Source of the DNA: an uncultured virus (IMG/VR IMGVR_UViG_3300031836_000398)
Lineage: Duplodnaviria > Heunggongvirae > Uroviricota > Caudoviricetes > Herelleviridae
Virus record (IMG/VR): IMGVR_UViG_3300031836_000398
DNA: 56,783 bases
Direction: 5' to 3' (one strand)
The notes below the pieces were generated by a model. The model did no database searches, was not told where the DNA came from, and worked only from the letters and a program-made list of their open reading frames with translations. Both the position numbers and the translations under genes were made by a program. Below are positions 35,577-56,783 of the stretch, piece after piece; position 1 is the first letter of the stretch, and every line of letters begins with the position of its first letter.

Positions 35577-37835
35577 ATGGGTCTGAAGCAGTCAATCGTC
35601 ATCGTCAACGAGTACACCGTGAAGTCTCCGACGACGAACAAGGCGAGCCGAGGGGCTACCCCCGGCGACTACGTGACTCGTTACATGGCTCGTGAGCTGG
35701 CGACCGAGACAGTGGCCCCGATCAAGCAGGATCGCCTGGATCATTTCGTGCTGCGCTACATGGCCAGGGCCAGCGCAACCGAGACCGCTCAGAGCCGACC
35801 AGGGCTCAAGCAGAAGATGAAGCGCGACCAAGGGTCGGCAGGAGTCTCGTTCGGATATGGCGAAGTCAGTCTGTCCCAGGCGAAGCTCAACAGCGCGAGC
35901 CGGGACATCCAGAATTGGTTCGACCAAGGCCACACCGTCATGAAGACGGTGCTGAGCTTTGATGAAGAGTACCTGCGTAAGCACGGGCTCATCCCTGCAG
36001 ACTTCGTCTGCAAGAAAAAGGGGGACTACCGGGGCCAGCTGGATCAGATGAAGCTGCGGATGGCTGTGATGCGCGGTATGGAGCGCATGGGCGGCACGTT
36101 GTACGACGACCTGCGTTACGTGGGCGTCATTCAGGTTGATACTGAGCACGTTCACGCTCACCTGGCGATCGTCGATGCAGGCGAGGGCAATCTGACACCC
36201 GATGGCACTCAGCGAGGCAAGATCCTTGACCGAGCTAAGAGCCTGTTGCGTCGTGGTATTGACGGGTATTTGGACGAGAAGCAGAGCGTCAAGCACATGA
36301 GCTCAGCGGTGGGCTACGAGCGCCGCAATGTCACCACGTTTGTGAAGCGGTGGGCTCACCAGCAAATGCTGCGTGAGTCTCTGCCACAGTTCTTGCTGTC
36401 GTGCTTGCCAGAGGATCGACGTCTCTGGCGCTCGAGCACAAACCATGCCTCCATGAAGAAGGCCAACCGGATCGTTCACGAGCTGGTGGAAGACGTGTTG
36501 TCGCGACCAGGCTCACCGTTGCCGGCGGCCATGGCGAAGGTTCATGCCTATGCGAAGCAGCGTCGACAAGCGGAAGGTTTGACCCGTGGCCAGTGGAAGC
36601 ATCTCGTGGACAATGGCCGTGCTCAGATCATCGAGCGCGGTGTCAACGGTGTCTACGGTTTGCTGCGGGCACTGCCCGAGAACGCGCTAGAGGTGCGTAC
36701 TCCGGTGTTGGATGCCATGAGCATGGACTACGAAGAACTGGCCGTGCGAGCGAGCCAGACCAGCCACTTGAACGAGAGCAATGACCTGGCAAGCTTCGGC
36801 TTCCGTCTGCGTAGCTACTCTGCTCGTCGGGATAGTCACCGAGAGAAGCGCAAGTTTTATCACCAGAGCGCGCGGGCGTGGGAACAGTCAGAGAAGGCCG
36901 GTATTGCCTCTGAGGCATCACGGGCTCTCTACGAGTTCTATCTCGAAGAAGAGGCATACCACTCGCGTTGTGCGGCGAAATATCAGAAGTTCCTGACGTT
37001 CGCTGATCGTGACCAGGCGAACTGGAACACGAAGTGGCAGGCGGTCGCAGAGTACGGCGAGCGGATGACGTCGCTGACGATGCTGCGCAAGGATGCCTCG
37101 CTGCGCAAGATGAAAGACGCCAACGAGGCTGAGACGCTCGGCCGTGAGATCTACGGTCAATCGGGTGGTGGTTTGCTGACGATCACCGGCCCCGCGGGTA
37201 CGAAGGTTCTCGACGAACGCCTGACAAAGATGCGAGCCAACTATGTGGAGCAGGTTGCTGATCTGCGAAGCGATCTTGCCGCGTCGGGGTTGAAGCTGAC
37301 GATCAAACGTGACCCCAGTGGCAGCACCGCTGATGAAGGGATCATCTCACCCGGCGCCGAGTACGACTTTGCCGACGTCAAGGGAATGGATCTGCACCAC
37401 ATGCGTTACGACTTCTCCACGGACGTGAAGGTCGGTAAGCGAGCTCGTACCCAGTTTGTCGACTGGGCACGTTCACGGATGGAGCACTTGGCCAAAGCGG
37501 TGCGGTATCTGAAGCTGTCGCGTCAGCACAGCGCCATTGAGAGCCTGCCTGTGGCCGACATCGAGTCGATGGTCGTACTGGCGGACAATCTTGAGGCACA
37601 GAGCGCTCAGGGCAACGCAGAGATCGTGTTGCCGAGCGAGGTAGCTGCGCTGGTCAAAAAGAACCAGACGCTGCGCCGTTCACGCACCGTGACGCTCGAC
37701 GCGAATCTGGCCAAAGAGCTCGAGAGCAAAGTCGACGAAGCCGCTATCGAAGCTGCCGGTATTGATCCATTCATTCTGCCGGAAATGAGCGAAAAAGAGA
37801 CGGAAGTGTCACGCATATCTCACGGTTTGGAATAG
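35577..37835 (+). CDS. mobL: MobL-type conjugative relaxase
   Basis: SIVIVNEY...PGDYVTRYMAR (candidate catalytic Tyr), KTVLSF, and YVGVIQVDTEHVHAHL HUH motif. Confidence 0.8.
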   Translation: MGLKQSIVIVNEYTVKSPTTNKASRGATPGDYVTRYMARELATETVAPIKQDRLDHFVLRYMARASATETAQSRPGLKQKMKRDQGSAGVSFGYGEVSLSQAKLNSASRDIQNWFDQGHTVMKTVLSFDEEYLRKHGLIPADFVCKKKGDYRGQLDQMKLRMAVMRGMERMGGTLYDDLRYVGVIQVDTEHVHAHLAIVDAGEGNLTPDGTQRGKILDRAKSLLRRGIDGYLDEKQSVKHMSSAVGYERRNVTTFVKRWAHQQMLRESLPQFLLSCLPEDRRLWRSSTNHASMKKANRIVHELVEDVLSRPGSPLPAAMAKVHAYAKQRRQAEGLTRGQWKHLVDNGRAQIIERGVNGVYGLLRALPENALEVRTPVLDAMSMDYEELAVRASQTSHLNESNDLASFGFRLRSYSARRDSHREKRKFYHQSARAWEQSEKAGIASEASRALYEFYLEEEAYHSRCAAKYQKFLTFADRDQANWNTKWQAVAEYGERMTSLTMLRKDASLRKMKDANEAETLGREIYGQSGGGLLTITGPAGTKVLDERLTKMRANYVEQVADLRSDLAASGLKLTIKRDPSGSTADEGIISPGAEYDFADVKGMDLHHMRYDFSTDVKVGKRARTQFVDWARSRMEHLAKAVRYLKLSRQHSAIESLPVADIESMVVLADNLEAQSAQGNAEIVLPSEVAALVKKNQTLRRSRTVTLDANLAKELESKVDEAAIEAAGIDPFILPEMSEKETEVSRISHGLE

Positions 37836-37841
37836 TGTGTA

Positions 37842-37857
37842 TGCTGATTTATCAGCA
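37842..37857. promoter_or_regulatory. 16-bp palindromic box (37976 gene)
   Basis: TGCTGATTTATCAGCA. Confidence 0.75.
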
Positions 37858-37975
37858 TATAAAAACACAACTTGCCCTTTTAGGGTCTGTATGTATTAGT
37901 ATGTAACTGTCTCGTCCAGCACACGCCGGAGATTACGGGACGCCCGGTAAGTACTAGATGCAAGGAGCAACACAC

Positions 37976-38548
37976 ATGGCAAACCTCAAAGGCACCGGTT
38001 CGATGAAGGCAGTTCCTCTCGTTGGCGTTTTCTACGACAACGGTGTAGCCAAGGACAAAGACGGAAACGACCAGACTCGTTTCATCGACTTCCAGGTTGA
38101 CCACCGCGATTCCCGTGGTGCTGAACAGACCAACGCTCACCTTTCCACCCAGCACACCAAGGACAAGAACGACAAGCGCCGCATCAATAACGGCGTTGGT
38201 TATTCGGCCAAGGAAAACGCCGAGAAGCCCAGCCAGTTCGCTGGGATCATCGAAGCCGCTGGCAAGAACCACTTCTACGACAAGAAGACCGGCAAGCACA
38301 CCATCACCGTGACGGCAGATGTCATGCCGTCCAGCAAGGGTGACGGTCTCGTCGTGAACACGAAGACCCTCGAGGGTTCAGAGTTCACCGCGACCAAGAC
38401 CACTGCTGACAAGCAGTTCGAGGCTGGCGCCAAGGCGCGCTCCGCTGCCGCAGCCGAGCGCGAAGCCGCTGTTGAAGCTGCTCCGATTGCGGGTGCTCCG
38501 GCTGCCGAAGCTGTTGAAGCAACAGCTGACGAGCCTGCTCTCGGTTAG
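37976..38548 (+). CDS. Hypothetical protein, probably well expressed
   Basis: AAGGAG RBS, own promoter region, and a hairpin at about 38565-38602. Confidence 0.7.
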   Translation: MANLKGTGSMKAVPLVGVFYDNGVAKDKDGNDQTRFIDFQVDHRDSRGAEQTNAHLSTQHTKDKNDKRRINNGVGYSAKENAEKPSQFAGIIEAAGKNHFYDKKTGKHTITVTADVMPSSKGDGLVVNTKTLEGSEFTATKTTADKQFEAGAKARSAAAAEREAAVEAAPIAGAPAAEAVEATADEPALG

Positions 38549-38647
38549 TCACCACGAAGTAGCGGAAAGCCTGCGTTGGGATTCGTCTCGACGCAGGCTT
38601 TCGCTCTTTCACGACACACACATCACCAGAACAAGGGGGTAACCAAT

Positions 38648-39154
38648 ATGACAACCAGTCAAAAAGAATTCTCGTCACAATCAGGGCTCGGAACGTATGC
38701 GGGTGGACGAGTAAAGGTGCTGCCGACGGCAGTGCCTCCAGGCGAACCTGGCTCGGTGTTCAATCCGGTCGTCGTTGGTCGCGAAGAACAAGCAGCCCGT
38801 CGCGCTAACAGCGAGGAAGCGGGTCTGACAGGCATCGAACTGCGACAGCGTCAGCTGGCAAAGGGGCGTGAAGGTCGGCCGGCAAAGTCGGGTCAGCGTT
38901 CGCTGAACGACAGGTTCAATCCGAACCGAGCGCACCAGCAAAGCCCGTTGGAGCAAGCTCTCGAGAAGCTCGATCGAGAAGACCAGAGTGAACCCGAGGT
39001 CGTCGTTGAGTCGATGAAGGGCTTTGGTAAGGGTCTGGTCGAGGGGCACCGCAATCGGGTCACGATGAACCCGTCTCATTCCGCCAGTGTCGAGACGATC
39101 GACTCGAACGCTGCAGAGGCGCAGAAGGAGGGTTCCGACAGCTACGGCCGTTGA
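38648..39154 (+). CDS. Hypothetical low-complexity protein
   Basis: AAGGGGG RBS before ATG 38648; terminator hairpin at 39179-39218. Confidence 0.6.
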   Translation: MTTSQKEFSSQSGLGTYAGGRVKVLPTAVPPGEPGSVFNPVVVGREEQAARRANSEEAGLTGIELRQRQLAKGREGRPAKSGQRSLNDRFNPNRAHQQSPLEQALEKLDREDQSEPEVVVESMKGFGKGLVEGHRNRVTMNPSHSASVETIDSNAAEAQKEGSDSYGR

Positions 39155-39261
39155 CGCTCAGTGACTGCGTGTCACACGAAGGGCGGCTGCTTTCCCGAGG
39201 GAAGGTGGTCGCCCTTTTGCGGTCTTAGCGGGGTTTGTGTGATGGTGCTGTGTTAGAATTA

Positions 39262-39277
39262 TGCTCGAATACGAGCA
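39262..39277. promoter_or_regulatory. 16-bp palindromic box (Clp ATPase gene)
   Basis: TGCTCGAATACGAGCA, right after the extended -10 TGTTAGAAT. Confidence 0.75.
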
Positions 39278-39307
39278 AAAACAAGATATTTAGACAGAGG
39301 CGGCGGA

Positions 39308-41074
39308 ATGTTCGACCAGAGTGATATGAATGAGAAGTACCCGATCCTTTCGGCGTACTCCGACCCGATCAAAGCGCCTGAGCGCGAGATCGTTGGTCGC
39401 GACCATGAGGTCAATCAGCTCATGGCGTCAATGTCACGTCCGGAGCTGTGTAACGCGCTCTTGTTGGGCCCCGCAGGTTCCGGAAAGTCGGCGTTGGTGC
39501 AGGCGACAATGCTCAGCGACTCCGGGCGGCTCTACATGGAAGTAGACCTGGCTCGGATGATCATAGGTTTGGCGAGTATCGAAGAACTCGCGGGAACGCT
39601 GAAGGCGTTCTTCGATGACGCCGAGAAGTTCGCCCGAGATGAGAAGCAGCAACTCGTGCTGTTCATGGACGAGTTCCACCAGATCGTGCAACTGTCTGTG
39701 GCTGCCGTGGAGGCTCTCAAGCCGATCCTGGCGGCATCCGGTGTGCGCGGTCTGCGCATCATCGCCGCTACGACGTACGACGAGTTCAAGGCGCACATTG
39801 CCGCGAACCTGCCGTTGGTCGAGCGCCTACAGCGCATCAACCTGACCCCAACGGACAAGAAGACGACGATCTCGATTCTGCGCGGCATGGCCGTGCGGTA
39901 CGGGGTGTCAGAGATGTTCTACGACGATCACCTGTTGGAACTGATCTACGACTACACCGAGCGCTTTGTCCCGGCGTCGTCACAGCCGCGAAAGTCGATC
40001 CTCGTGCTGGACTCGATGGTGGGTTGGCACCGCTTTACGAAGCGCGGCATGGATCGCGCGCTGTTGGCTGACGTGTTGTTGGAGTCGATCAACGTCAACG
40101 TGACGTTCCAGATGGACGCCGTCAAGATCAAAGAGCAACTCGATGCCAAGGTGTTCAGCCAGGATTACGCCACGGCAGCAGTAGCCCGACGGCTGCAGCT
40201 GTGTGTGGCTGACCTGCACGATAAGACGAAGCCACTGAGCTCCTTTCTCTTCACTGGCTCGACCGGTGTCGGAAAGTCTGAGCTCACCAAGCAGCTCTCG
40301 CTGCTGCTGTTCGGAGATGACCAGCGCAGACTGATCCGTTTCGATATGACGGAGTACGCAGCAGAATCATCCTTGGCTGCGTTCAAGTCTGAGTTGGCAG
40401 CCCAGGTGTGGCAGCTCGGTCACGCGGTGATTCTTTTTGACGAGGTCGAGAAGGCCGCGCCGACAGTGATTCGGCTCTTGCTTCAGGTGCTCGATGACGC
40501 CCGTTTGACGGACGACAACAATCGCGAGGTCTCGTTCCTGAACACGTACATCATTCTGACGACGAACGCCGGCTCGGAGATCTACTCAACGATTGCTCAG
40601 TACGAGGTCGACGACACCGGCTCGGGGGAGAAGCTCAAGGAGTACTCCAAGCAGATCCGAAACTCGATCACGAACACGCAGGGTGAGAATCGGTTCCCGC
40701 CAGAACTGCTGGGCCGTATCGACGCCATCGTGCCGTTCCAGCCGCTGTCGCTGGAAACCCAGCGCAAGATCGTGTTCTCCAAGCTGCACCAGATGACGAA
40801 GGAGGTGCTGACCAAGCACAACGTTCGCGTCCAGGTCGACGGCAAGGTGTTGCAGTATTTGATCGACGACAAGGGCGACACCGAGGCGGATGCCGGTGGT
40901 GCTCGTGCAGCGATCAGCAAGATGACCGAAGAAGTGGTCACTGAGGTTGCCGCATTCATCAACGCCCACCCGTTCGAGCGCACGATTCGTATTGACGTGG
41001 ATGGGGATCTGGTGAGTGAGCACAAACAGATGTTGAAGTCAGATGCGCATATCGTTGTGTCTGCATCACAATAA
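39308..41074 (+). CDS. ClpA/ClpB-like tandem AAA+ ATPase lacking N- and M-domains
   Basis: NBD1 GPAGSGKS / LFMDEFH / IAATT; NBD2 GSTGVGKS / RFDMTEY / LFDEVEKA / FPPELLGRID / GAR. Confidence 0.9.
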   Translation: MFDQSDMNEKYPILSAYSDPIKAPEREIVGRDHEVNQLMASMSRPELCNALLLGPAGSGKSALVQATMLSDSGRLYMEVDLARMIIGLASIEELAGTLKAFFDDAEKFARDEKQQLVLFMDEFHQIVQLSVAAVEALKPILAASGVRGLRIIAATTYDEFKAHIAANLPLVERLQRINLTPTDKKTTISILRGMAVRYGVSEMFYDDHLLELIYDYTERFVPASSQPRKSILVLDSMVGWHRFTKRGMDRALLADVLLESINVNVTFQMDAVKIKEQLDAKVFSQDYATAAVARRLQLCVADLHDKTKPLSSFLFTGSTGVGKSELTKQLSLLLFGDDQRRLIRFDMTEYAAESSLAAFKSELAAQVWQLGHAVILFDEVEKAAPTVIRLLLQVLDDARLTDDNNREVSFLNTYIILTTNAGSEIYSTIAQYEVDDTGSGEKLKEYSKQIRNSITNTQGENRFPPELLGRIDAIVPFQPLSLETQRKIVFSKLHQMTKEVLTKHNVRVQVDGKVLQYLIDDKGDTEADAGGARAAISKMTEEVVTEVAAFINAHPFERTIRIDVDGDLVSEHKQMLKSDAHIVVSASQ

Positions 41075-41081
41075 GGCATTA

Positions 41082-41097
41082 GACTGATAAACGAGGG
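41082..41097. promoter_or_regulatory. 16-bp box, degenerate (41184 gene)
   Basis: GACTGATAAACGAGGG. Confidence 0.55.
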
Positions 41098-41183
41098 AAA
41101 ACAGAGATTTAGAGCACACCTCCAAAGTTTGAATACACCGAATTAGCCCAGCAGGGCATAAGCGAGAAGATGGAAGGACGATC

Positions 41184-43481
41184 ATGGTTATGAAGTTAGG
41201 GAAGGGAGCCGCGAATTTGCTCGACAATAAAGCAAAGGATGGGTCTGAGCAAGGCGCTGATGGCGCCGCGCTGACGGCAACGCCCGTGGTCAAGAAGCGC
41301 AAGGCGGATGAACTGTTGTCCAGCGTGGTCGGGGAATCGACAGTTGGTTCAGCCATTGGGCTGATGCGCAAGAACGCTGCATTTATCCTGCCCGACGAAA
41401 AGTCCTGGGTAGTTCTTGGTCTCCAGGTCAGCGACATCGGCGGCCTGAGCATGAAGCAGAAGAATGACGAAGCCAAAGGCTCGTTGATTCAGCTCATCAC
41501 GGCAGACCAGATCACCACGGTGACCACTGCCGACATGCTTTCGGCTGAGGTGCTGGGCATTATTCCCAACGAGGAATCGCTGTCTCGGATGGACGAGTTC
41601 GGCCTTCTGCGTAACGCACCATATCTTTGGATCGTTGTGCGACAAAAGAGCGATGGTTCGCTGGACGCAGGCCCCGTTTCGGACGCCGGCCTTCGTGCGA
41701 GTTTCGAGGATGTCGTAGCTGTCTCATCGGGGGAGCTGAGCCTTGCGAGTCTTCTTCCTGATGTCTGGACTGCCGCAGGTGGTTCCGATGAAGATCTCAC
41801 CACGACGGCTGTTAGTGAAGTTTCCGCTGACGAGCCGGAGCCTGAAGCAGTGAGTTCGTCACGTTCTGACGAACCCCTGGCGGCTCCCGCTGACGGTTTC
41901 GTCGACGACGACAGCCCCTTTGGGGATGAGCCCGTCGATTACGACGCCTTGGATTCCGCTGATGACGAGCTGCCAATCGAAGATGCTCTGGCTGACGAAG
42001 CCGAAGATGCAGACGACGCTGAAGACGAAGACGAAGCTGATGCGAATGATGACGACGACGCTGACTTCGGTGATCCCGAACCTGCCGCGGAGTCTGAAAC
42101 CGTTGAAGAGGCCGTGGCGAGCGCTCCTGCGACGCCGGTCGATGACCGTATCGTCAATGAGGCCGAGGTTCAGGATTCGATTGCCCGTCGCTTCTTGACG
42201 AGTGATCTTGATCTCGAAGTAGACCTGGGACAGTTCGAGTCGAACTTCATTGTTCGCACGAACCCGATCGCCTTCGATTTCGGTGTCACTCTGACTGAGA
42301 CGGGAACTGATTCGGACTGGCTTAGCCAGCAGGTGAAGCAGTTGTCGTTGCAGGCGAACGTGCAGCTGGAGCAACTGCACGATAACCACAAGGCATCATT
42401 GCGTGAGTACTACGTGTCATTGATGTCGGCACACATCGAGCAGGTTATTACCGATGTGTCTCTCGATAACGAAGGCTCCTACTACTACCGCTTGTCTAGG
42501 GCGGCGAAGGCCGACTTCACGCAGCGTCAACGACAGAGCCCCGAAGAGGTCTCCGCACTGCGCCGAGAGCTCAACGAGCGCTATGACGGCGAAGCCGATG
42601 CTCGTGCTGCCCAGGCTGCAGAGGCAGCCCGGTTGCGCTACAAGGAGCAGAATCGTGCGCGACACGAACGTGACCTCGCGGAGATCGCTCTTGAGAACGA
42701 ACGTGCTTCTGAGTCGATGTTTGCCGGCGCACGTCAGGTCATCCTGGAAACCCGTCGCAAGGATGCCCTGAGTCGGATCGACCTGGGCGCCACGAAGATC
42801 TTCGATGTTCTGGTGGAGCGTCAGGTTGAGAACCGCGCAGCCGAAGAGACGATGCTCAAGGAGTGGAGCGATCGGATGGCTCTGCTCATCGACGAGAACC
42901 GCAAGAGTGACCTTGCGCGAAGTGAAGCTTTGGCTGAACAGCTTTCGCGCATCAATCAAGTCGAGGAACTCAAGGCGGAACACTCGGCGCGGGTAGCCGA
43001 GTTGCGTCAAGAGCAGGTTGCTCGGGTTTCCGATATGTCGGCAGACCTCGAGCGTGCTCGTGAAGAGGCGTTTGCGGAGCTGACTACTCAAAGCACCGCG
43101 TGGAACAACTCGCTTGCCGAAGAACGTCAGAAGACGGACGCCGCCCAGGGTCAAATCAAGACTCTGCTGGCTGAGTTCGATCAACTGGGCCCGACGTTGG
43201 AGAGCCACTACAAGAACCAGATCGAATCGGCGCGTGTAGAGGCTGATTCGTACTCGCTGGCTCTTGAGCGTTCAGGGAAGGTGCAGTCGCGTGCGAACAA
43301 GACGATGGTCGGTTTGATCGTTGTTCTGGCACTGGCATCCCTGGCTGTGGGCTTCATCGCTGGCTTCATCGTTGTTGGGCAGTTCGGTGTCACCCTCGGC
43401 GATGTGTTCGCGCCAGGCGTCTCCGAGCAGACCAGCGAGAGCACCCCGCTTGGTGATGTTGCGGAGCTGCCGGGGCAGTAA
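41184..43481 (+). CDS. Coiled-coil protein with acidic linker and C-terminal TM
   Basis: Asp/Glu-rich tract, long heptad region, hydrophobic helix near the C-terminus. Confidence 0.7.
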   Translation: MVMKLGKGAANLLDNKAKDGSEQGADGAALTATPVVKKRKADELLSSVVGESTVGSAIGLMRKNAAFILPDEKSWVVLGLQVSDIGGLSMKQKNDEAKGSLIQLITADQITTVTTADMLSAEVLGIIPNEESLSRMDEFGLLRNAPYLWIVVRQKSDGSLDAGPVSDAGLRASFEDVVAVSSGELSLASLLPDVWTAAGGSDEDLTTTAVSEVSADEPEPEAVSSSRSDEPLAAPADGFVDDDSPFGDEPVDYDALDSADDELPIEDALADEAEDADDAEDEDEADANDDDDADFGDPEPAAESETVEEAVASAPATPVDDRIVNEAEVQDSIARRFLTSDLDLEVDLGQFESNFIVRTNPIAFDFGVTLTETGTDSDWLSQQVKQLSLQANVQLEQLHDNHKASLREYYVSLMSAHIEQVITDVSLDNEGSYYYRLSRAAKADFTQRQRQSPEEVSALRRELNERYDGEADARAAQAAEAARLRYKEQNRARHERDLAEIALENERASESMFAGARQVILETRRKDALSRIDLGATKIFDVLVERQVENRAAEETMLKEWSDRMALLIDENRKSDLARSEALAEQLSRINQVEELKAEHSARVAELRQEQVARVSDMSADLERAREEAFAELTTQSTAWNNSLAEERQKTDAAQGQIKTLLAEFDQLGPTLESHYKNQIESARVEADSYSLALERSGKVQSRANKTMVGLIVVLALASLAVGFIAGFIVVGQFGVTLGDVFAPGVSEQTSESTPLGDVAELPGQ

Positions 43482-43503
43482 TAGCTCGGAACAAAACAAC
43501 TGG

Positions 43504-43550
43504 CGAAGGGTGTCAGGTTTCTACCAAGAAGCCTGACACCCTTCGTTTTT
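43504..43550 (+). terminator. Intrinsic terminator
   Basis: CGAAGGGTGTCAGG...CCTGACACCCTTCG followed by TTTTT. Confidence 0.8.
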
Positions 43551-43574: not shown

Positions 43575-43590
43575 CACTGATAAACGAGCA
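43575..43590. promoter_or_regulatory. 16-bp palindromic box (virD4-N)
   Basis: CACTGATAAACGAGCA. Confidence 0.7.
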
Positions 43591-46775: not shown

Positions 46776-47182
46776 GCCCCACCGTTCCCTCCGATCAGCG
46801 CTCGATGCCGAGCGTGGATCTTATCGTCGCCCACTGGAAGTCTGTCGGGGTTGACTGGGTGCAGCATCACGGCTGGGGTGAGCCATTCTGCTTTGGTTGC
46901 GGTTGGTTGCCCCCGGTCACGGATCGCCGGGCGATGAGTTGGCGCTGGGCCGGGCCCTGGCTCGATCGAGCGCACCTACAAGACCATTGGGTCGAAGGGG
47001 ATGATTCGGTTGAAAACTTGGTGATGCTGTGCCATTTATGCCACGCACAGATGCCGCAGGACTTCGAGGATCGCGCGGAGGCGTTGCTCTGGGTTCAACA
47101 GGTCGAGCGGTGCTCGGGGTGGTGGCAGTTGTACACCGACTTGATCTGCGAGGCGAGAGGTATGAGGGGCTCCGAGCAGTAG
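46772..47182 (+). CDS. HNH endonuclease-like protein
   Basis: CFGC...LDRAHL...NLVMLCHLCH; ATGA overlap with the virD4-N stop. Confidence 0.8.
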   Translation: MSPTVPSDQRSMPSVDLIVAHWKSVGVDWVQHHGWGEPFCFGCGWLPPVTDRRAMSWRWAGPWLDRAHLQDHWVEGDDSVENLVMLCHLCHAQMPQDFEDRAEALLWVQQVERCSGWWQLYTDLICEARGMRGSEQ

Positions 47183-47287: not shown

Positions 47288-47419
47288 ATGGATATTGAGA
47301 TGGCTGATTCTTCAGGACAGCTCTACGACAATTCGAGGCGGGGTTTGTGTAGAGTGCATGGAATTCCGCTGGACGACGGTTTCTGTGACGCCTGTCATAT
47401 CGAGAACAACGACGATTGA
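47288..47419 (+). CDS. 43-aa zinc-finger microprotein (absent from the ORF track)
   Basis: GGGGGTG RBS; MDIEMADSSGQLYDNSRRGLCRVHGIPLDDGFCDACHIENNDD (C-x2-H-x8-C-x2-C); ends just before a terminator. Confidence 0.5.
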   Translation: MDIEMADSSGQLYDNSRRGLCRVHGIPLDDGFCDACHIENNDD

Positions 47420-47422
47420 AGT

Positions 47423-47460
47423 AAAAGAAGCCCCTGCGCATGATGCGCAGGGGCTTCTTT
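47423..47460. terminator. Bidirectional intrinsic terminator inside the split virD4 locus
   Basis: AAAGAAGCCCCTGCGCAT-G-ATGCGCAGGGGCTTCTTT. Confidence 0.85.
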
Positions 47461-47465
47461 GTCGC

Positions 47466-49499: not shown

Positions 49500-49515
49500 T
49501 GCTGATAAAGGAGGA
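49500..49515. promoter_or_regulatory. 16-bp box (virD4-C / divergent endonuclease gene)
   Basis: TGCTGATAAAGGAGGA. Confidence 0.55.
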
Positions 49516-49569
49516 TAAACGTATAGACTGGTGGTTGGATAAACAATCGAGAGAGAAGAGATATTGCAT

Positions 49570-49857
49570 ATGTCTGATTTGCTCATGGTGCCAGCCGGGG
49601 AAAGACGCGTTGTCACAACGGACGAACTCAGGGCGATGCTTGCTCGCGGGGAACAGGTGTTCCTGCCTGAGGCGACAGTCACGGACGAGAGCATCTTGTC
49701 AGAATACGCCGCTGCCGATCGTGCGCGTTTGGACGTAGACGCAGCTGACAATGACATCGTCAGCATCGAGTACGTGCGTGACGACGAGGTTCAGTGCATC
49801 GAGGTTGCTGACGACCGTCACCTGTACATCACGGATGACTTCATTCCGACACACAAC
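49570..49857 (+). other. Split intein C-fragment (about 96 aa, blocks F and G, ends His-Asn; Thr+1 at 49858)
   Basis: Cys at position F4 (VQCIEV); PTHN/T terminus. Confidence 0.9.
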
Positions 49858-51003
49858 ACGAGCAACATTGTGTTCCTCAAGAGCACTGATGACTCGATGA
49901 TTGACACGCTGCAGAAGATGTCCGGTGTTCGGCACCGCGCGTACACCGACTCTAAGACGGTGACCAAGGACATGGAGCGTTTGTTCCTCCAGACCGAGGG
50001 CAAGGTGTCGTACACGATGGCTGTGAAGGAAGAACCCGTCATCAGCTATAACGACATGGCCTTCATCTCAGAGCGCAACAGCATGGTCTTCAGTGCCGGT
50101 AACTCACCGGTGTGGAACCGCAACGAGACGATCCTGCCGATGAGCTGGCGCTTGTTCAAGGACACGATCGTTCATGCGGGTCACGAGTACTCGCTGCAGA
50201 CGATCCCCACGCTGTCATCAGCGTTGGACTTCGATGTGCGGCTCAATCAGCCTGACTTCACCAAGATGCTCGCCAAGCGCATGGCGCAGGCAGAGCGTGC
50301 CGCTGAGGCCAAGGAGCTGTACCAGACGGCGTACAACTACTCGGATTACGACGTCTCGCGACTGGATCCCGACCTGTACTCAGACGAGGTCATGGGTTTG
50401 ATCGAGTCGATGGCGTGGGAGGCAATGGGTATTGACCCTGACGACATGAAGGACGGAGATCACGAGGCTCTTGAGGCTCAGTATGTGATGAACGACGAGG
50501 ACTACGAAGTAAACACCGAGCAGCTCGAGGAAACAGCCCGACGACAGGAGACGAGGGATCGGATGGGACACAAGATCTATGCGGGAGCTACGGTCAGCCG
50601 CGAAATGCTGGTCAACCCCGACGGCAGTGCATTGAAGCACACGCTCGATGCTGAGATTGTGGCAGCGTACAAGGTAGCCAGGCCGCACCTGGAGCGCGAC
50701 ATGGAGTACTTCCGCCTGGGCGCCGATGGTTCGCTGCTCAGCGGTGACGGCACCGAGGCGTACATCTCGAAGCTTGATGAGTCCGACGCCCTGGCCGACG
50801 CTCAGGTAGCTGCCACGGACGCCAACACGCGAGTGTTTGCGGAAGACAACGTGACTGAGAATGCTCATGGTTTGTCGACGTTCGAGGTACACGGGGCGTT
50901 CTACCGGTTCCTGGCGTCGCTGGACACCTGGCAGGGTCTGGCGCAGGGCGAATTTGACCGCGAGATGGTCAAACAGATGCACGTAAAGGACGCCACGATT
51001 TGA
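49570..51003 (+). CDS. virD4: Split-intein C-fragment fused to VirD4 C-extein
   Basis: IVSIEYV...VQCIEV...HLYITDDFIPTHN then TSNIVFLKSTDDSMIDTLQKMSG, which continues the VirD4 C-terminal motif. Confidence 0.88.
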   Translation: MSDLLMVPAGERRVVTTDELRAMLARGEQVFLPEATVTDESILSEYAAADRARLDVDAADNDIVSIEYVRDDEVQCIEVADDRHLYITDDFIPTHNTSNIVFLKSTDDSMIDTLQKMSGVRHRAYTDSKTVTKDMERLFLQTEGKVSYTMAVKEEPVISYNDMAFISERNSMVFSAGNSPVWNRNETILPMSWRLFKDTIVHAGHEYSLQTIPTLSSALDFDVRLNQPDFTKMLAKRMAQAERAAEAKELYQTAYNYSDYDVSRLDPDLYSDEVMGLIESMAWEAMGIDPDDMKDGDHEALEAQYVMNDEDYEVNTEQLEETARRQETRDRMGHKIYAGATVSREMLVNPDGSALKHTLDAEIVAAYKVARPHLERDMEYFRLGADGSLLSGDGTEAYISKLDESDALADAQVAATDANTRVFAEDNVTENAHGLSTFEVHGAFYRFLASLDTWQGLAQGEFDREMVKQMHVKDATI

Positions 51004-51026: not shown

Positions 51027-51042
51027 TGCTGGTTTATCAGCA
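51027..51042. promoter_or_regulatory. 16-bp palindromic box (upstream of the RNAP gene)
   Basis: TGCTGGTTTATCAGCA. Confidence 0.7.
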
Positions 51043-51043
51043 C

Positions 51044-51161: not shown

Positions 51162-54100
51162 ATGAAAAGTAGCTCAACTGGTTTGCGAAGTTATCTATAC
51201 GAGTACATGTTCTTTCGGACTATCGAGCGAACGCAGCAGAACCTCAGTGAAACGATCCTTATCTCGGAGGCTCGTCGCCTTCGTGATCTGGTGGGCGAGA
51301 AGCTCACCAACCAGGGGTTGTCGATGACCGATAGCGGTCTGAAGGTCACACCGGTACTGCGAGCGATCGAAGAGACCATGCGAGCTGAGGTTCCGGGTTA
51401 CCGGGATCTGTTCTCACAGGCCAAAGACGACGGTGTTCCGTTCTCGGTTGATTCGTTGGGTTACGCCCAACTCAGCCGCGAGTTCATGCGCACGGCAGGT
51501 CTGTCCACGGAACCCTCGGGTGCTGCTGGGCCACGCCTGCCGATTAGCCCCTACGATCCTCGCTGGGCTGTGCGAAGCACGGTCAAGCAGGCTGGTTCCA
51601 ACTTGCTCAACGTTCCCGATCACTTGATCGAAGAAGTTGTGGCTGGAGAGGTCGGTGATCTGGAAAGTTCAGATAGCGAAGCTCTCTATCTCTACGGTTC
51701 CGACCAGGACGACAAGAACGTTGAATTCGGTCGGGCGATGAGCGCCGACGACATGAGCGGCATGGCTGAGCTCATGGGGTTGATGAGCACCCGCGAATAC
51801 AACGATGTTCGACAGTGGATGATCGACGGTGGCCTCGACGGCAACGGTCAGATCGACCACCGCCGTTACATGGGCCCCGACGCCCTCGCGCGTTCGGTTG
51901 CCATCCTCCGCGAACTCGGTGAACAGGGCACGCCCTACACCGTTACTCGCGACCTCAACCCTGGCCAGATCCGGGCCAACATTGAGGGTACAAAGATCGG
52001 CGTTCGCCTGAGCGATACTCGCGACAATGACGACTTTGTCGGGCGGGTCTACGACAACGGGGTAGTCACTCGGTACACCACGAACCGCAAGGTCGCCGGA
52101 ACCGACCGCGTCATGGGCTATACGCCCACCACGGCAGAGAGCGTTGACCTTCTGCGCATGGCACAGGGTCTTCCTGTGCAGCGTTCAGACGGCAAGGGCA
52201 TCATCGGAGCGGTAAACACTCGCTCCGAGCTGGTGTGGGACAAGGCCGTAGGCGACAACATCTACACCGAGATCCAAGACAGCTACCACAGCGCCGGTTC
52301 GGCGATGTTCGTAGTTGGCAATCCGCCAACCGAAGATTTCAACGAGGGTCAGACGTCGCAGGTATTCGTGCGTCGCGACGGCACTCAGCGCAGCGTCAGC
52401 TCGAAGTTCTTTGTTGACCAAGACTCGGCAGCGGCGTACCTCACGTACGGCGTAGAGACTGCTCGCGAGAACTTCATGGATGCCTTGCGTGTCGAGGCGC
52501 TGATTGCGGCTGCTCAAGAGCACGCCGTGGAGGCAGCCGAGGGGGAGTGGTTCCCTGAGTTCGACGGAGACCCCGAAGTTGCGGCTATTCAGCGCAGCTA
52601 CTGGGATGTGTTGCGTGGTGCGCAAGACAACCTTCTTCGTCCCGGCGCAACCGAGGATGCTTACCGCGACAAGGTAGACATCATCGGTGAACTCAGCGTT
52701 GACAACGAGCTGGGTGAAAGCGTCCACGAGTACATCGTTGGCGACATTGCCTACGTCGGTAGCCCCGAAGATCAGATCCGTGCTCACTCCGCTGATGCAC
52801 TGGATTACGTCATCGGTCAGTACGAGCAGCACGAGGTTCCCGACGCCGAGGGGCACTGGCAGTCACAGCGTTTCGACCCGGTACGCCTGGCGAAGTTCAT
52901 GGACAGCGAATACGGCACCTGGCGCAATAACGATGACATCGTGGCTGCGCTTCGGGCCAGTGGTATTCCTGCTGAGGAACTCATGGGTGACAGCTTCTAC
53001 ACGAACACCATCAAGGATCGCCTCATCAAGTTCGACGCGGCTTCGGCTCAGTCGATCGGCGAGATTGAAGACCCGTTCGTGCAGGGTATGGCTGAAACCG
53101 TGCGGGATGCGATTGAACGCAACGGAGCTGCCGTCAATGACGTTGCCGTTGATGCCAACGGCATCGTGTCGTGGAGTGCCGAACGCCAAAGTGGTTTCAA
53201 GGGTAAGACCGAGACGGTCACTGGCCAGATCGGTCAGATCTTCACCCGCGGCGAGTACGGCGAGATCGTGACGAAGTTCGCCGGCGGCGACAACTACCTG
53301 TTCGTTCCGGGCTATGAAGCCGGTATCGCTGTCCAGAAGGTTGGCGAGAACAAGACGGTCGAAGAACGCAGCAAGTTGCGCGGCTACGATCAGATTCTGC
53401 GTGATCAGATCCAGTACCAGGTGTCGTCAGAGATCCTCAGCCAGCGCACCGATCTTGGTGAGCCGACGAGCCTCAACAGCGTGTACCGCCGTCTCTACGA
53501 CGTACGTCACGATGTGGACTTCATCGAGCGCAGCGCAGAAGAAGGTCTCACTCCTGAGTGGCGTGACGCGATTCTCAGCACTGAGGGGCGCCGTGTGCGT
53601 TACCCCAACGCGGTGCGTGATGGTTCGACCATCAACGCCGAGTACCAGGCTGATAAGGGTCGCGGATTGTCGGCAAGCGATCCCGCTAACGACAACACGT
53701 TGGATCCGTGGATTCTCACGGGTCAGCGCAACATGGCGATCATGGGCGAAGAGAGCGATGGCTACTTCGACCCAATGGTGACGTCAGGTTCGATCAACCA
53801 GGGCGTTACGCGCTACTTGGTTGAGGGTGCAGTTGTTTCCGCTGACGGCACGATCGTTCCTGGCGACAAGGACGACCGCACACCGTTGATGAAGCACCCT
53901 GACACCGCTTCGATGCGCTACAACCCCTTCGATCGTCAGCAGATGACCGCAAGCAACCTCATGCGGGCTGCAGCGGTAACTGAGCCGGTTGCAACCGCGA
54001 TGATGACCTTCGGTGGTTGGACGGCAGACGACCCAATGGTGGTCAGCCGTGACTTCGCTCAGAAGCACCAGATTCGTGGCGCCGAGGGCACCATGCGCGA

Positions 54101-56783
54101 TCTGGTTGTGGGCGACAAGCTCAGCGACCTTCACGGCAACAAGGGAGTCATCTCACTGGTTGTCGATCGCGAGATGGATCTCGCGGATGCTCGTGAGCTG
54201 GGTCTCGAGAAAGAGGTCGCGTGGTTCAAGAAGAACAACATCGACGTCATCATGAGCCCGTTCTCGGCTGTATCTCGCTTCAACGGAGGTACTGCTCGTG
54301 AACTCATGGAAAGCGACGCACAGCCGCTTCACCACCCGTTCGTTGATGCGAACGGTGAGACTCGGGAGCCTCTGCATGGTGCTCAGGGTGAGATGCGATT
54401 CGTCGTGACTCACATGGCGGTTGACTCGAAGACGAAGGTCTACGACGACGCTGCTCTGGCTGAGGGACGCGGCCGCAAGGCATCGTCACAGCTGGCGTGG
54501 GCACTTGGGTCGCAGAACTGCGAGAAGGTCATGGCAGAGTGCTATGGCCCCAACAGCACCGCGGTGAGCAACTTCCGCGAGACGTTGATCGCAATGGGCT
54601 TGGACATGGAAGCTGACGGCACTTTGCGCGTCGGATTCGACGACATGGACGAAGCTTCGGAGCGCCGTTTGTTCCCGATGCCTGAGCTGATCCGTACGGA
54701 ACAGCGCAAGTCCATCAACGGTCGCCCACCGGCTCGCCCCGGTTTGAACTTGCGGCTGATGAAGCGTGAGTTCGGAGCGCAGATCGGCAACAAGGGTGGA
54801 GACCTCGAGCTGCCATTCTCGCTGAAGATGCCGTCGGGCTTGCCGACACCTCAGGCAACTGATGCGTCATGGAAGCTGCCGGTGCTCAGTTCGCACCTGC
54901 GCTCGGGTCAAGATCTCGATGATGGTTCCAGCACGGTTCACGATTACACGAACCACTACTTGGCCATCCACGAGCAGTCGTTGAAGTTCCGCTTTGCCCA
55001 GGAGGAATTGAAGGACGAGGCGTTGAGTGCTGAACAGCACAAGCGCCACACTCAGACCCTCACGGAAGCTCCGCGTCTGGCACAGTCTGCCTACGACCGG
55101 ATCACCGAGAGCTTGAAGAGTCGTCGTTTCTCTGGAAAGAGCAACATCTTCAAGGAAGGTCTGATGGCTTCCCGCTTGCCTCACTCGGCTACCGCCGTGT
55201 GGACAAGCGACCCGCGTCTGGACATCGACCAGGTTGCAATGGGCCCGGCTATGGCCGAGGCACTGGGTTTCAAGGAGAACGACCACGCGCTGATCTGGCG
55301 TGACCCGGTTCTGCGTGATGGTGGCGTGCGCTATATGCGCGTTGCGATCGACTCGCGACTGACCGGTGTTGCCATCAACCCGGTAATGGATGCTTGCTTC
55401 GACGGCGACTTCGACGGCGATGCTGTTGCTGTTGTTCGCCTGACCAGTGACGCAGCCAAGCTCGAAGCGATGCAGAAGCTGAGCGTTGAGTCGAACCTGT
55501 TGGACTTGGGCAGCACGCTCGAAGACGGTTCGTACTCGCTGTCAATGCAGGACTCGCTCGACACGAAGGTGTCGCAGCACGTTGACCCTGAGCTGACGGA
55601 ACGCTTCGAGGCGCTACGGATGCGTGCCAACGACGCGAAGTTCGACCTCGACGAAGGCGAGATCGACCAGGCTGCCGCGTGGGACGCGAACAGCGAGATT
55701 CTGGGTGAGCTGAGCGACTACTACCGCGATGCTCTGTCAGGCCAGTTCGGTGATGCCGCGCTGAGCTTTGACGATGTGCCGTCGCACTTGCGGTCGGTCA
55801 TGAGCGCGTGTGTCGAGACCGGCGCTAAGGGTTCAGCCAAGAAGGTGCGCGACTACGCGCGCTACCTTGGCGCTGACCCGGACACGTTTGCTGATCTTGG
55901 TGAGAGCCAGGCTACGCAGGACGACCACGAGGGTGTCATGTACGCCACCGCGATCAAGTCGTTCGGTACTGGTGTCGCCGGCATGTTCTCGCAGCGCGGT
56001 GTGAAGGCACTTCGCAACGAAGAACTGAAGGCCGTACTGGAACTCACCTACCCGGTGACGCAGTCGATTCTGCAGTCAAAGCACGACCCCGCTGAAGCTC
56101 GTCAGAAGTACGAGATGTTGATGGGGCCTGCTCGGGCGCACTGGAAGGGTCGCAAGCTCGACGCCACCGTTGGTGACAACGGTGCTCGTGTCTGGAAGGT
56201 TGCCACCGATGGCAAGGGCAAGGAGATCCAAGCTGACACGGAGACGTGGAAGCGCCAGTTCCAGGAGCTGTACACCGCTGCAGACGGACTCAATGTTCGC
56301 GTCAATGACGAGAACATCGACAAGGTCGCCGCAGCGCTGTCCAAGGACGGCATGGTCATCGACATCGAGGACAAGACCTCGCACGCAGTCGATGCTCCCA
56401 AGCTCGGTTCGACGATGGATCGCCTGGCTTATGGCGGAACGTTTGACGACGTTCTGGCAGCGGCTGCTGAGCGAGAGAACGTCTTCTCGGGAGTGCAGAA
56501 CAGTGGTTTTGCACCTCACGTCATCAAGAAGAACCAGCAGGCCATTGCTGAGTACGACGAGCAGGTCACGGCAGGTTTCGATGCCGAGCTACCTGAGCTG
56601 AGCCCTTTGGTGAAGCGCGACGTTCTGGCTGACCACAACGAACTGAGCCGCGTCAGCGGTGGTGCTGAGGCACCAAGTCCGTTCGTGACAGCCATAGCAG
56701 CACGGCCACGTACGCGGGTTATCCCCGCGCACTCGCCGTCAGTCGTCGATGAGAAAAGCGAGGTCGACGCGCTCTCGCTTTAG
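51162..56783 (+). CDS. Single-polypeptide two-barrel (beta/beta'-like) RNA polymerase
   Basis: Beta-like: RQQMTASNLMRA, GWTADDPMVVS, VGDKLSDLHGNKGVIS, IDVIMSPFSAVSRFNGG, GRKASSQLAWAL. Beta'-like: SGKSNIFKEGLMASR, LIWRDPVLR, AINPVMDACFDGDFDGDAVAV, TGAKGS, YPVTQSILQSKH. Confidence 0.9.
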   Translation: MKSSSTGLRSYLYEYMFFRTIERTQQNLSETILISEARRLRDLVGEKLTNQGLSMTDSGLKVTPVLRAIEETMRAEVPGYRDLFSQAKDDGVPFSVDSLGYAQLSREFMRTAGLSTEPSGAAGPRLPISPYDPRWAVRSTVKQAGSNLLNVPDHLIEEVVAGEVGDLESSDSEALYLYGSDQDDKNVEFGRAMSADDMSGMAELMGLMSTREYNDVRQWMIDGGLDGNGQIDHRRYMGPDALARSVAILRELGEQGTPYTVTRDLNPGQIRANIEGTKIGVRLSDTRDNDDFVGRVYDNGVVTRYTTNRKVAGTDRVMGYTPTTAESVDLLRMAQGLPVQRSDGKGIIGAVNTRSELVWDKAVGDNIYTEIQDSYHSAGSAMFVVGNPPTEDFNEGQTSQVFVRRDGTQRSVSSKFFVDQDSAAAYLTYGVETARENFMDALRVEALIAAAQEHAVEAAEGEWFPEFDGDPEVAAIQRSYWDVLRGAQDNLLRPGATEDAYRDKVDIIGELSVDNELGESVHEYIVGDIAYVGSPEDQIRAHSADALDYVIGQYEQHEVPDAEGHWQSQRFDPVRLAKFMDSEYGTWRNNDDIVAALRASGIPAEELMGDSFYTNTIKDRLIKFDAASAQSIGEIEDPFVQGMAETVRDAIERNGAAVNDVAVDANGIVSWSAERQSGFKGKTETVTGQIGQIFTRGEYGEIVTKFAGGDNYLFVPGYEAGIAVQKVGENKTVEERSKLRGYDQILRDQIQYQVSSEILSQRTDLGEPTSLNSVYRRLYDVRHDVDFIERSAEEGLTPEWRDAILSTEGRRVRYPNAVRDGSTINAEYQADKGRGLSASDPANDNTLDPWILTGQRNMAIMGEESDGYFDPMVTSGSINQGVTRYLVEGAVVSADGTIVPGDKDDRTPLMKHPDTASMRYNPFDRQQMTASNLMRAAAVTEPVATAMMTFGGWTADDPMVVSRDFAQKHQIRGAEGTMRDLVVGDKLSDLHGNKGVISLVVDREMDLADARELGLEKEVAWFKKNNIDVIMSPFSAVSRFNGGTARELMESDAQPLHHPFVDANGETREPLHGAQGEMRFVVTHMAVDSKTKVYDDAALAEGRGRKASSQLAWALGSQNCEKVMAECYGPNSTAVSNFRETLIAMGLDMEADGTLRVGFDDMDEASERRLFPMPELIRTEQRKSINGRPPARPGLNLRLMKREFGAQIGNKGGDLELPFSLKMPSGLPTPQATDASWKLPVLSSHLRSGQDLDDGSSTVHDYTNHYLAIHEQSLKFRFAQEELKDEALSAEQHKRHTQTLTEAPRLAQSAYDRITESLKSRRFSGKSNIFKEGLMASRLPHSATAVWTSDPRLDIDQVAMGPAMAEALGFKENDHALIWRDPVLRDGGVRYMRVAIDSRLTGVAINPVMDACFDGDFDGDAVAVVRLTSDAAKLEAMQKLSVESNLLDLGSTLEDGSYSLSMQDSLDTKVSQHVDPELTERFEALRMRANDAKFDLDEGEIDQAAAWDANSEILGELSDYYRDALSGQFGDAALSFDDVPSHLRSVMSACVETGAKGSAKKVRDYARYLGADPDTFADLGESQATQDDHEGVMYATAIKSFGTGVAGMFSQRGVKALRNEELKAVLELTYPVTQSILQSKHDPAEARQKYEMLMGPARAHWKGRKLDATVGDNGARVWKVATDGKGKEIQADTETWKRQFQELYTAADGLNVRVNDENIDKVAAALSKDGMVIDIEDKTSHAVDAPKLGSTMDRLAYGGTFDDVLAAAAERENVFSGVQNSGFAPHVIKKNQQAIAEYDEQVTAGFDAELPELSPLVKRDVLADHNELSRVSGGAEAPSPFVTAIAARPRTRVIPAHSPSVVDEKSEVDALSL

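Follow-up and report, generated by a model that had tools for sequence, protein, structure and literature searches.

An RNA polymerase gene kept beside the coupling protein of a conjugative element suggests that the element's own RNA synthesis is part of DNA transfer

Introduction

Why would a conjugative element keep the gene of a giant RNA polymerase (RNAP) directly downstream of the gene of its coupling protein? The question is raised by IMG/VR record IMGVR_UViG_3300031836_000398, a stretch of 56,783 nucleotides (nt) that was analysed at its full length and is called the window here. On the evidence of the open reading frame (ORF) listing and profile scans, the window (~58% G+C) represents the half of a Gram-positive-type conjugative element that serves DNA processing and coupling, the host of the element being an actinobacterium from brine. 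It encodes, in this order, a relaxase, a Clp-like ATPase, a coiled-coil protein, the VirD4-type coupling protein (T4CP) of a type IV secretion system (T4SS) and the RNAP. Conjugation is thought to depend on host RNA polymerase or on small element-encoded primases to restart the transferred strand. A preliminary description of this DNA, made from its letters, had proposed that these genes act together, the ATPase unfolding or refolding large substrates and the RNAP being delivered to recipients. Our analysis suggests that the element's own RNA synthesis is part of DNA transfer.

Results

The polymerase gene is a near-constant neighbour of the coupling protein gene

The RNAP gene occupies 51162..56783 (+) and encodes a complete single chain of 1873 residues with β- and β′-type barrels (β::β′), its stop codon falling at the window end. 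Upstream on the same strand lie the first ORF of the T4CP (43611..46775), the coiled-coil gene (41184..43481) and the Clp-like gene (39308..41074). This arrangement was surveyed from both of its ends. The 84 loci of the RNAP-anchored set comprise 80 from genomes, located with the RNAP alignment, and 4 stretches of plasmids. A T4CP gene lies upstream on the same strand in 79/84 of them and a Clp-like gene in 78/84, with a coiled-coil homologue between the two in 78/84. Two of the five loci without a T4CP are contigs of 5.5 kb, and the remaining three, in metagenome-assembled genomes (MAGs) labelled Muribaculaceae, Saccharofermentans and Lachnospiraceae, are distantly related (32-37% identity). 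The T4CP-anchored set was obtained by searching metagenome contigs with the T4CP ATPase domain, and 80 of 412 relatives were kept. Where the contig continues for at least 5 kb past the end of the T4CP, the RNAP is found downstream on the same strand in 40 of 42 loci, and in 34 of 35 where it continues for at least 7 kb; a Clp-like gene is present in 52 of the 55 loci with enough upstream room.

Plasmids give the same picture. The plasmid collection holds 13 records with the T4CP and 13 with the RNAP, 12 being common to both, and the best Clp-like matches fall on the same plasmids. The three genes occur together on plasmids of Streptomyces, Gordonia, Rhodococcus, Staphylococcus and Lactococcus. 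Full-length relatives from the first three genera (3/3) have the order MobL ... AAA ATPase, hypothetical protein, T4CP, RNAP. The Staphylococcus plasmid SAP020A carries, in this order, the genes of a relaxase, a small protein, the Clp-like and coiled-coil proteins, ..., the T4CP, then two further genes and those of the RNAP, ..., and topoisomerase III. The preliminary description had staked its proposal on a conserved gene order, and the order Clp-like, coiled-coil, T4CP, RNAP does hold across Actinomycetota and, less strictly, in Staphylococcus plasmids. In this T4SS lineage the RNAP follows directly downstream of the coupling protein with near constancy. Given this conserved order, we regard it as a fixed part of the conjugation system, as would be expected of a co-transferred enzyme.

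Beyond the 3′ end of the RNAP gene, where the window has already ended, relatives carry a protein of ~450-730 residues without assigned function, a small gene and a gene for an HU-family DNA-binding protein. The HU-type gene was found in three of the four relatives scanned and in the annotation of L001, a Streptomyces plasmid (L013 17765-18181, L025 17808-18194, L009 20078-20431, L001 27814-28212).

The enzyme looks like an intact cell-type RNA polymerase

The polypeptide can be divided into an N-terminal part of ~650 residues without a recognised fold, a β-type barrel (GDKLSDLHGNKGV), a β′-type barrel with the DFDGD motif, and a disordered C-terminal tail. Eight residues are invariant across 26 diverse family members whose identity goes down to 27%: K986, K994 and D957 of the β-type barrel, and R1380, P1382, D1416, D1418 and D1420 of the β′-type barrel, the last three belonging to DFDGD at 1416-1420. 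By our own motif mapping these eight correspond to the universal set of two-barrel RNAPs as given in the available text of PMC2919709. The family alignment also retains GDKLSDxHGNKGV on the β side and WRDPxLR...FDGDFDGD on the β′ side. Among Pfam models, Rpb2_6 matches with 26.9 bits, over its cut-off of 23.4, and Rpb1_2 with 23.6 bits, under its cut-off of 25.3. Compared with the PDB, the family profile matches both β′ and β chains (the latter at E 7e-5), and the best sequence match to the β′ barrel is gp96 of Thermus phage P23-45 (8h2n, E 2e-7). There was no PHROG match.

A structure predicted for residues 640-1700 (predicted local distance difference test score, pLDDT, 71.5; predicted template modelling score, pTM, 0.54) matches bacterial β′ chains at E 2e-9 over ~600 columns, and the best 50 rows of the Foldseek search with it are all β′ or Rpb1 chains of cellular RNAPs. 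In this predicted model the C-terminal half of the enzyme folds like bacterial β′. Judging from its motifs, the RNAP looks like a catalytically intact single-chain polymerase of the cellular type.

The N-terminal 650 residues (51162-53111) are conserved and give a confident model (pLDDT 85.5), for which Foldseek returned no match at E <= 0.001. The best likenesses in VIA-align are at noise level: the NrdR ATP-cone (residues 4-92, Z 6.3) and the DNA-binding domain of T4 MotA (residues 228-338, Z 5.2). At the other end, the C-terminal 70 residues (window 56560-56780) form a low-complexity, disordered tail with a conserved motif. Its pattern in relatives is KRDV..ARxRGxxRRSxHAV..DDYGMG, namely KRDV, a basic patch and an acidic-aromatic end, the end reading DDYGMG, DGFEL or DGFQP among loci L005-L080. 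Such a tail may be a docking or export signal. An "RRS" triplet shared by the relaxase and RNAP tails was considered as a signal and rejected as too short. A predicted complex of the T4CP's C-terminal portion with the C-terminal 174 residues of the RNAP scored 0.00, which weighs neither way.

A search with residues 700-1600 returned 536 cluster representatives of the family at E <= 0.001, ten of them 2128-2181 residues long. Among the matches listed, all named relatives but one carry the names of actinobacterial genera or a generic label, most being annotated as "hypothetical"; the lone other name is a MAG labelled Candidatus Lumbricidophila. Arthrobacter and other Micrococcaceae are the closest named relatives of the window's enzyme. 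The 20 longest variants among the 150 matches listed (2327-2884 residues) yielded no informative additional Pfam domain, and one of them carries a YpsA/SLOG domain.

The element family occurs in many actinobacterial genera, both as plasmids and within chromosomes, and host-independent expression would aid such a range. Together with the intact look of the enzyme and the HU-type gene 3′ of it in relatives, this range fits an RNAP that serves the recipient without being transferred as a protein: it would be newly made in the transconjugant from host-read promoters and act in establishment or replication, through priming or through transcription independent of host sigma factors. We consider this account distinctly unlikely. 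It leaves unexplained the very tight linkage to the T4CP and the box held in common with the transfer apparatus (see below), and, the incoming DNA being single-stranded, the host would have to prime and transcribe it before any RNAP exists.

A repeated box precedes most genes of the module

The preliminary description had noted that most module genes share an operator-like box, and this is borne out. For the box CTSRWWWWBSAG there are 19 matches in the window, at 10 sites, against a mean of 1.84 and a maximum of 7 matches in 100 shuffles, and a near-match at 19603 brings the sites to 11. Ten of the eleven lie 14-121 nt upstream of + strand ORF starts (11914, 14074, 19691, 28394, 37958, 39308, 41184, 43611, 49564 and 51162), and the genes so preceded include the helicase, the topoisomerase, a membrane-protein gene, a gene for a 196-residue protein, the Clp-like and coiled-coil genes, both T4CP ORFs and the RNAP. 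The eleventh site (35314) is intragenic and without AT-rich flanks. The exceptions within the module are MobL and the gene of a 192-residue protein, which have no box of their own.

More specifically, the + strand of the module has CTGATTTATCAG at 37844..37855, 102 nt before the 196-residue protein gene; CTCGAATACGAG at 39264..39275, 32 nt before the Clp-like gene and right after a TAGAAT hexamer; CTGATAAACGAG at 41084..41095, before the coiled-coil gene, and again at 43577..43588, 22 nt before the T4CP; CTGATAAAGGAG at 49502..49513, 50 nt before the second T4CP ORF; and CTGGTTTATCAG at 51029..51040, 121 nt before the RNAP gene and followed by a terminator-like hairpin. Another terminator-like hairpin, of 20 pairs followed by a T run, lies between the coiled-coil gene and the T4CP (43503..43546, +). 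A further one of 38 nt (AACCCCGAGA..TCTCGGGGTTCTTTT) occurs in two copies that are 92% identical (13921-13958 and 17552-17589); the copies are in direct orientation, 3.6 kb apart, and flank the helicase and DUF7768 genes.

Both halves of the box fit one degenerate half-site, CTSR, giving an inverted repeat CTSR-N4-YSAG, and the box abuts or overlaps hexamers resembling host-type -10 elements (TAGAAT, TATGCT, TAGACT). The idea that the box forms a DNA or RNA hairpin was rejected: several copies (CTGATAAACGAG) are unable to pair and fit two degenerate half-sites. In relatives, we counted the strict box within 230 nt upstream of each gene, for which the background of 0.046 per kb amounts to ~1% per upstream interval. 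It precedes the coiled-coil gene in 37/69 loci and the Clp-like gene in 18/60, the RNAP in 4/80 and the T4CP in 1/78. For Arthrobacter plasmids, a syntenic T4SS with conserved DNA repeats has been reported (Mihasan and Brandsch 2016, via the parts available of PMC6305408 and PMC10494377); these repeats may or may not be the box.

Conservation across genera, far above the ~1% expected, implies a reader encoded by the element, and the RNAP itself could be that reader. It would then stay in the donor, start at the box, read through the hairpin terminators that hold back the host RNAP, and transcribe the transfer genes. The box stands just 5′ of 10 genes of the transfer region, always with an A-rich stretch on the gene side; terminator-like hairpins lie between co-oriented genes; and YonO, which according to the available text of PMC5467207 transcribes the late genes of SPbeta, is a precedent. 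However, a degenerate inverted repeat on -10-like hexamers is the pattern of a dimeric repressor's operator, unlike known promoters of phage RNAPs. The RNAP and T4CP genes of relatives rarely have a box of their own, and the RNAP would need to transcribe the operon that encodes it. A private donor-side transcription system is possible but, in our judgement, unlikely. By its sequence the box resembles an operator, overlapping -10-like hexamers, for a dimeric regulator that the element encodes, and is less likely to be a promoter for the element's own RNAP.

The Clp-like ATPase has both ATPase rings and neither canonical pore loop

The Clp/Hsp100-type double AAA+ ATPase (39308..41074, +; 588 residues; NCBIfam ClpA 1e-70) aligns to positions 187-714 of the 734 of the ClpA model, that is, to the D1 and D2 rings only, with no N-domain and no M-domain. 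Walker A and B are intact in both rings (GPAGSGKS and FMDEF in D1, GSTGVGKS and LFDEVE in D2). In an alignment to ClpC (6em9), the KYR of the D1 pore loop is replaced by -LK (aligned T-LK), and the GAPPGYVG loop of D2 falls in an 11-residue deletion. Both features extend through the family, as counted in genome and metagenome loci on high-scoring segment pairs (HSPs) of at least 40% identity: the position of the D1 pore-loop tyrosine holds L, I or V in 114/115 homologues and Phe in one, and at the D2 site 0/132 have an insertion or G[YFW]VG. The Staphylococcus homologue has an identical pattern.

The enzyme thus shares with the class-1 unfoldases ClpC, ClpA, ClpB and ClpV two AAA+ modules in the ClpA order with intact Walker motifs, and differs from them in having no N-domain, M-domain, D1 pore-loop tyrosine or D2 GYVG loop. 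A role in unfolding or refolding large substrates, the RNAP among them, for export through the T4SS, as proposed in the preliminary description, would suit the preserved Walker motifs, the gene's constant place near the T4CP and RNAP genes, and the established need of T4SS substrates for unfolding. Family-wide replacement of the D1 tyrosine and deletion of the D2 loop weaken this proposal, as does the lack of a substrate-binding N-domain; with both canonical pore loops absent, threading through a tyrosine-lined pore is not supported, and we hold an unfolding role to be quite improbable. Going by these motifs, the protein is probably no threading unfoldase but an ATPase that remodels or assembles the coupling complex.

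In some relatives the P-loops of the Clp-like ATPase contain inteins (L001 9114-13409; L011, L025, L029): HSPs to these genes stop at GSGK and restart after ...THNT. The 1431-residue "AAA ATPase" of the Streptomyces plasmid L001 is accounted for by such a P-loop intein. The ATPases of this module seem to carry inteins often.

The coupling protein is split at a candidate class-3-type intein

The T4CP has a VirD4-type membrane anchor and ATPase domain (Pfam T4SS-DNA_transf E 1.4e-16 and TraG-D_C 1.5e-6; NCBIfam CD1115-type 6e-35, below the model cut-off), with two N-terminal transmembrane (TM) segments at 54-72 and 188-206. In the window its ATPase domain is divided between two ORFs, breaking at ...IVQGN / TSNIVFLK. 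The first ORF encodes the N-extein (43611..46541, +; residues 1-977, ending ...VDKIVQGN), which aligns to residues 1-977 of the single-ORF T4CPs of relatives, and then an N-terminal intein fragment of 77 residues (46542..46775, +) with Ala first and block B reading ...NEHLW before the stop. The second ORF opens with a C-terminal intein fragment of 98 residues (49564..49857, +) that ends ...EVQCIEVADDRHLYITDDFIPTHN (...VQCIEVADDRHLYITDDFIPTHN, followed by TSNIVFLK), and continues as the C-extein (TSNIVFLKSTDD...; 49858..51003, +), comprising the last strands of the ATPase domain and a C-terminal extension of ~270 residues. Relatives have the two parts contiguous, as in the 1349-residue ORF of L005 with ...VDKIVQGNTSNIVFLKSTDD... 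What the preliminary description had listed as an unknown protein of 479 residues is, by its match to these single ORFs, the intein-split T4CP's C-terminal portion.

The 77-residue fragment contains blocks A and B and matches the gp41-1 intein (phmmer E 3e-9) and DnaB inteins (8e-7). The 98-residue fragment aligns to DnaB inteins and to NCBIfam intein_Cterm (18.4 bits, cut-off 15.6), with blocks F and G (...VQCIEV...FIPTHN) followed by the T nucleophile. In L025, a Streptomyces relative, the identical site holds an intact intein within one ORF of 1706 residues, whose motifs GALIGDGH and GLMDTDGT we read as a LAGLIDADG endonuclease. The first residue of the window intein is Ala, Trp follows block B, block F contains Cys and Thr precedes His-Asn, a pattern that we take to be that of class-3 inteins such as the mycobacterial DnaB intein. 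We consider it a candidate split class-3-type intein. As the ORFs read, either the split intein rejoins the coupling protein by trans-splicing, or the protein is non-functional.

Between the two halves lie a free-standing gene in a different frame for a 136-residue HNH-motif protein (46772..47182, +; Pfam HNH 0.004, weak) and, on the reverse strand, a free-standing homing endonuclease of 659 residues (47466..49445, -), consisting of 5 DUF4379 zinc-ribbon repeats and a nuclease part (Pfam DUF4379 1e-46; PHROG HNH/homing endonuclease 2.6e-48 and 1e-42). The co-oriented run of relaxase, Clp, coiled-coil, VirD4 and RNAP genes given in the preliminary description stands for every gene it named, all being present on the + strand, and is interrupted by this endonuclease on the - strand. 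An ORF of 126 residues at 47295-47675 was rejected as a gene; it has no matches and overlaps the endonuclease gene on the opposite strand. Dassa et al. are said to have described, in 2009, split inteins in "fractured genes" with a free-standing endonuclease between the halves. The window resembles these in having a conserved ATPase-site intein in two ORFs with endonuclease genes between, and differs in that the break falls between block B and the next block, which gives fragments of 77 and 98 residues.

The interval between the T4CP and RNAP genes is an insertion hot spot in the family, ranging from 123 bp to 6.4 kb (L009, L010, L042, L053, L065, L090-L109). It often contains, on the opposite strand, a DUF4379-type homing endonuclease, a small HNH gene and a relative of a 1332-residue window protein (see below), and homologues of the 136-residue HNH protein (41-52% identity) sit in it at other loci.

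A gap that takes up homing endonucleases and other genes, next to a T4CP in two ORFs, would also suit an RNAP without any role in transfer: a selfish or cargo gene, for example one used in conflict with other elements or hosts, in a permissive spot, or part of a decaying element copy whose coupling protein is broken. Neither version has much probability in our view. Cargo would not persist in 95% of T4CP-anchored loci, nor would it be kept in both Actinomycetota and Staphylococcus with every catalytic residue unchanged. As to decay, all ORFs of the window's module are open and the splice motifs are preserved in both halves of the intein; contigs of four further runs show the identical arrangement and cover the split-intein junctions without any difference, so the split is not an assembly slip.

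Other genes and occurrence of the element

The module begins with a MobL-family (MOBP-type) relaxase of 752 residues (35577..37835, +), whose MobL domain (Pfam PF18555, E 7e-75) scores 252.8 bits over residues 5-397 against a cut-off of 28.5; the NCBIfam MobP2 match (3e-16) is under the model cut-off. MobL homologues lie upstream in relatives' loci too. The 196-residue protein that follows (37958..38548, +) has no match in Pfam, NCBIfam or PHROG and is a conserved neighbour of MobL, with tblastn matches in 38/84 loci, which is wherever the flank extended far enough. The next ORF, of 192 residues (38576..39154, +), belongs to no family found and has a homologue in 0/84 related loci. The 765-residue coiled-coil protein (41184..43481, +) has no family match in Pfam, NCBIfam or PHROG either; it is tail-anchored, with an N-terminal globular part, an acidic linker, a long helical region and a single C-terminal TM segment at 712-730.

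Located 5′ of the relaxase-RNAP module are genes for a superfamily 1 (SF1) helicase, a tyrosine recombinase, a type IA topoisomerase, several membrane proteins, and a lysozyme and CHAP cell-wall hydrolase. A window protein of 724 residues has a lone weak VirB4-like NCBIfam match (E 0.0045) and no PDB match. At 730-6089, an actin-like (ALP_N) partition gene is followed by the gene of the 1332-residue surface-type protein, which has an N-terminal and a C-terminal TM segment and a weak match to the LAETG-type sortase signal; from these features it is possibly a surface adhesin for mating contact.

No near-identical DNA was found in the plasmid collection. Of sampled words from window 37800-44000, 74-100% are present in eight brine or seawater metagenome runs from several studies; thus the element recurs in saline habitats. 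No RNA run was among those listed for this DNA.

Discussion

What, then, is the RNAP for? We tentatively favour, at short of even confidence, the explanation that it is exported through the T4SS and makes RNA on the incoming strand, as a primer and/or as first transcripts. The RNAP would be produced in the donor alongside the transfer apparatus, be recruited by the coupling protein, and enter the recipient as a protein substrate of the T4SS. There it would synthesise RNA on the newly transferred single strand under the control of the element, to prime the complementary strand and/or to yield the first transcripts. Its role would be that of the Sog and TraC primases of IncI and IncP plasmids and of the virion RNAPs of N4, crAss-like phages and P23-45. 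The RNAP gene is located beside the coupling protein and under the transfer regulon rather than among regulators. Virion RNAP genes, sited among phage structural genes, and IncP and IncI primase genes, all with products that leave with the DNA, show this pattern, which therefore favours export. In RP4, the primase gene traC is in one operon with the relaxase and T4CP genes. Moreover, in four complete plasmids of the present type, the Pfam primase domains Toprim_2, DNAG_N, Toprim_3 and DNA_primase_S each occur in 0/4, and Prim-Pol gives sub-threshold matches in 2/4. That primases pass to the recipient in conjugation and that N4-type virion RNAPs are injected is stated in the available text of PMC5512222. 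A wider proposal, which we find somewhat doubtful, is that the whole T4SS lineage, from Actinomycetota to Staphylococcus and Lactococcus plasmids, has a core RNAP that is exported with the DNA for host-independent priming or transcription, its C-terminal tail serving as the signal.

Several points weigh against this explanation. Linkage to the T4CP is equally expected of any gene required in the donor, and the export of the RNAP is something we infer by analogy. With a mass of ~205 kDa, it would be a large substrate, and the sole candidate unfoldase is without pore loops. A processive RNAP, in which some segments resemble the bridge helix and trigger loop on a reading of motifs, exceeds the needs of priming. 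The absence of primases is weak evidence, since many conjugative plasmids do without one by using host enzymes. The tail motif of the window's own RNAP has diverged, ending ...ARPRTRVIP...VDALSL. Finally, the Lactococcus megaplasmid pJM1A has its RNAP-like gene, of 2382 residues, on the opposite strand and a few kb outside the T4SS block.

The enzyme has counterparts among described polymerases. RNAPs of the NCgl1702 type, fused β::β′ proteins recognised in silico and referred to as "RNAPs of mobile elements", are named after a 2169-residue protein of Corynebacterium glutamicum (available parts of PMC2919709 and PMC7824862). As far as their descriptions allow a comparison, they too are giant actinobacterial single polypeptides with β- and β′-type barrels, attributed to a phage or mobile element; the available text of these accounts describes no fixed place adjacent to a T4CP, no Clp-like ATPase and no box. 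A "plasmid single subunit RNAPs" label is also mentioned in the P23-45 authors' dendrogram (PMC10770324, in its available part). A literature search that did not extend to the primary papers (Iyer 2003; Iyer and Aravind 2012) and supplements returned no experiment on this RNAP family and no account of a fixed place in a T4SS module. YonO of the Bacillus prophage SPbeta, an active and processive RNAP for a private gene set (PMC5467207, available text), is likewise a single-chain two-barrel enzyme of a mobile element. It is a phage late-gene enzyme of ~100 kDa whose similarity to cellular RNAPs is limited to a few residues, unlike the window RNAP, which retains long β- and β′-like motifs and belongs to a conjugation module.

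Closer in their proposed role are the polymerases delivered with DNA. Gp96 of Thermus phage P23-45 is an injected two-barrel virion RNAP fused to the tape measure protein (available text of PMC10770324). For gp96, gp66 of phi14:2 (a crAss-like phage) and the N4 vRNAP, the RNAP gene lies among DNA-delivery genes, as it does here, and the enzyme is delivered with the DNA and makes the first transcripts. These are phage proteins packed in virions, whereas the delivery machine here would be a conjugative T4SS; and the window RNAP, with bacterial β′ as its top fold match and no PHROG match, looks closer to cellular RNAP than they do. Sog (R64) and TraC (RP4) are, like the window RNAP, RNA-synthesising enzymes encoded with transfer genes, and are exported to the recipient, where they prime the complementary strand (available parts of PMC5512222). 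They are Toprim primases making short primers, in contrast to a two-barrel RNAP of this size. The survey of polyvalent proteins in conjugative elements lists, in its available text, only primases and N4-like RNAPs and no two-barrel RNAPs (PMC5512222). As regards the transfer apparatus, the element resembles Gram-positive systems of the MobL/CD1115 type (pLS20-type relaxase, Clostridioides CD1115-type T4CP) in its MobL relaxase, VirD4-like T4CP, lysozyme and CHAP hydrolase, and topoisomerase. Unlike them, it has a T4CP of about twice the usual size with a conserved C-terminal extension, and its module adds the RNAP, the Clp-like ATPase and the coiled-coil protein.

The module offers tractable material in an uncharacterised RNAP family, a Clp-type ATPase without pore loops and a natural candidate for a split class-3-type intein. 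That a full cell-type RNAP is kept next to the export motor in two phyla suggests that the transferred strand is restarted in a different way, independent of the host, and makes the RNAP a likely determinant of host range in large actinobacterial plasmids and integrative elements.

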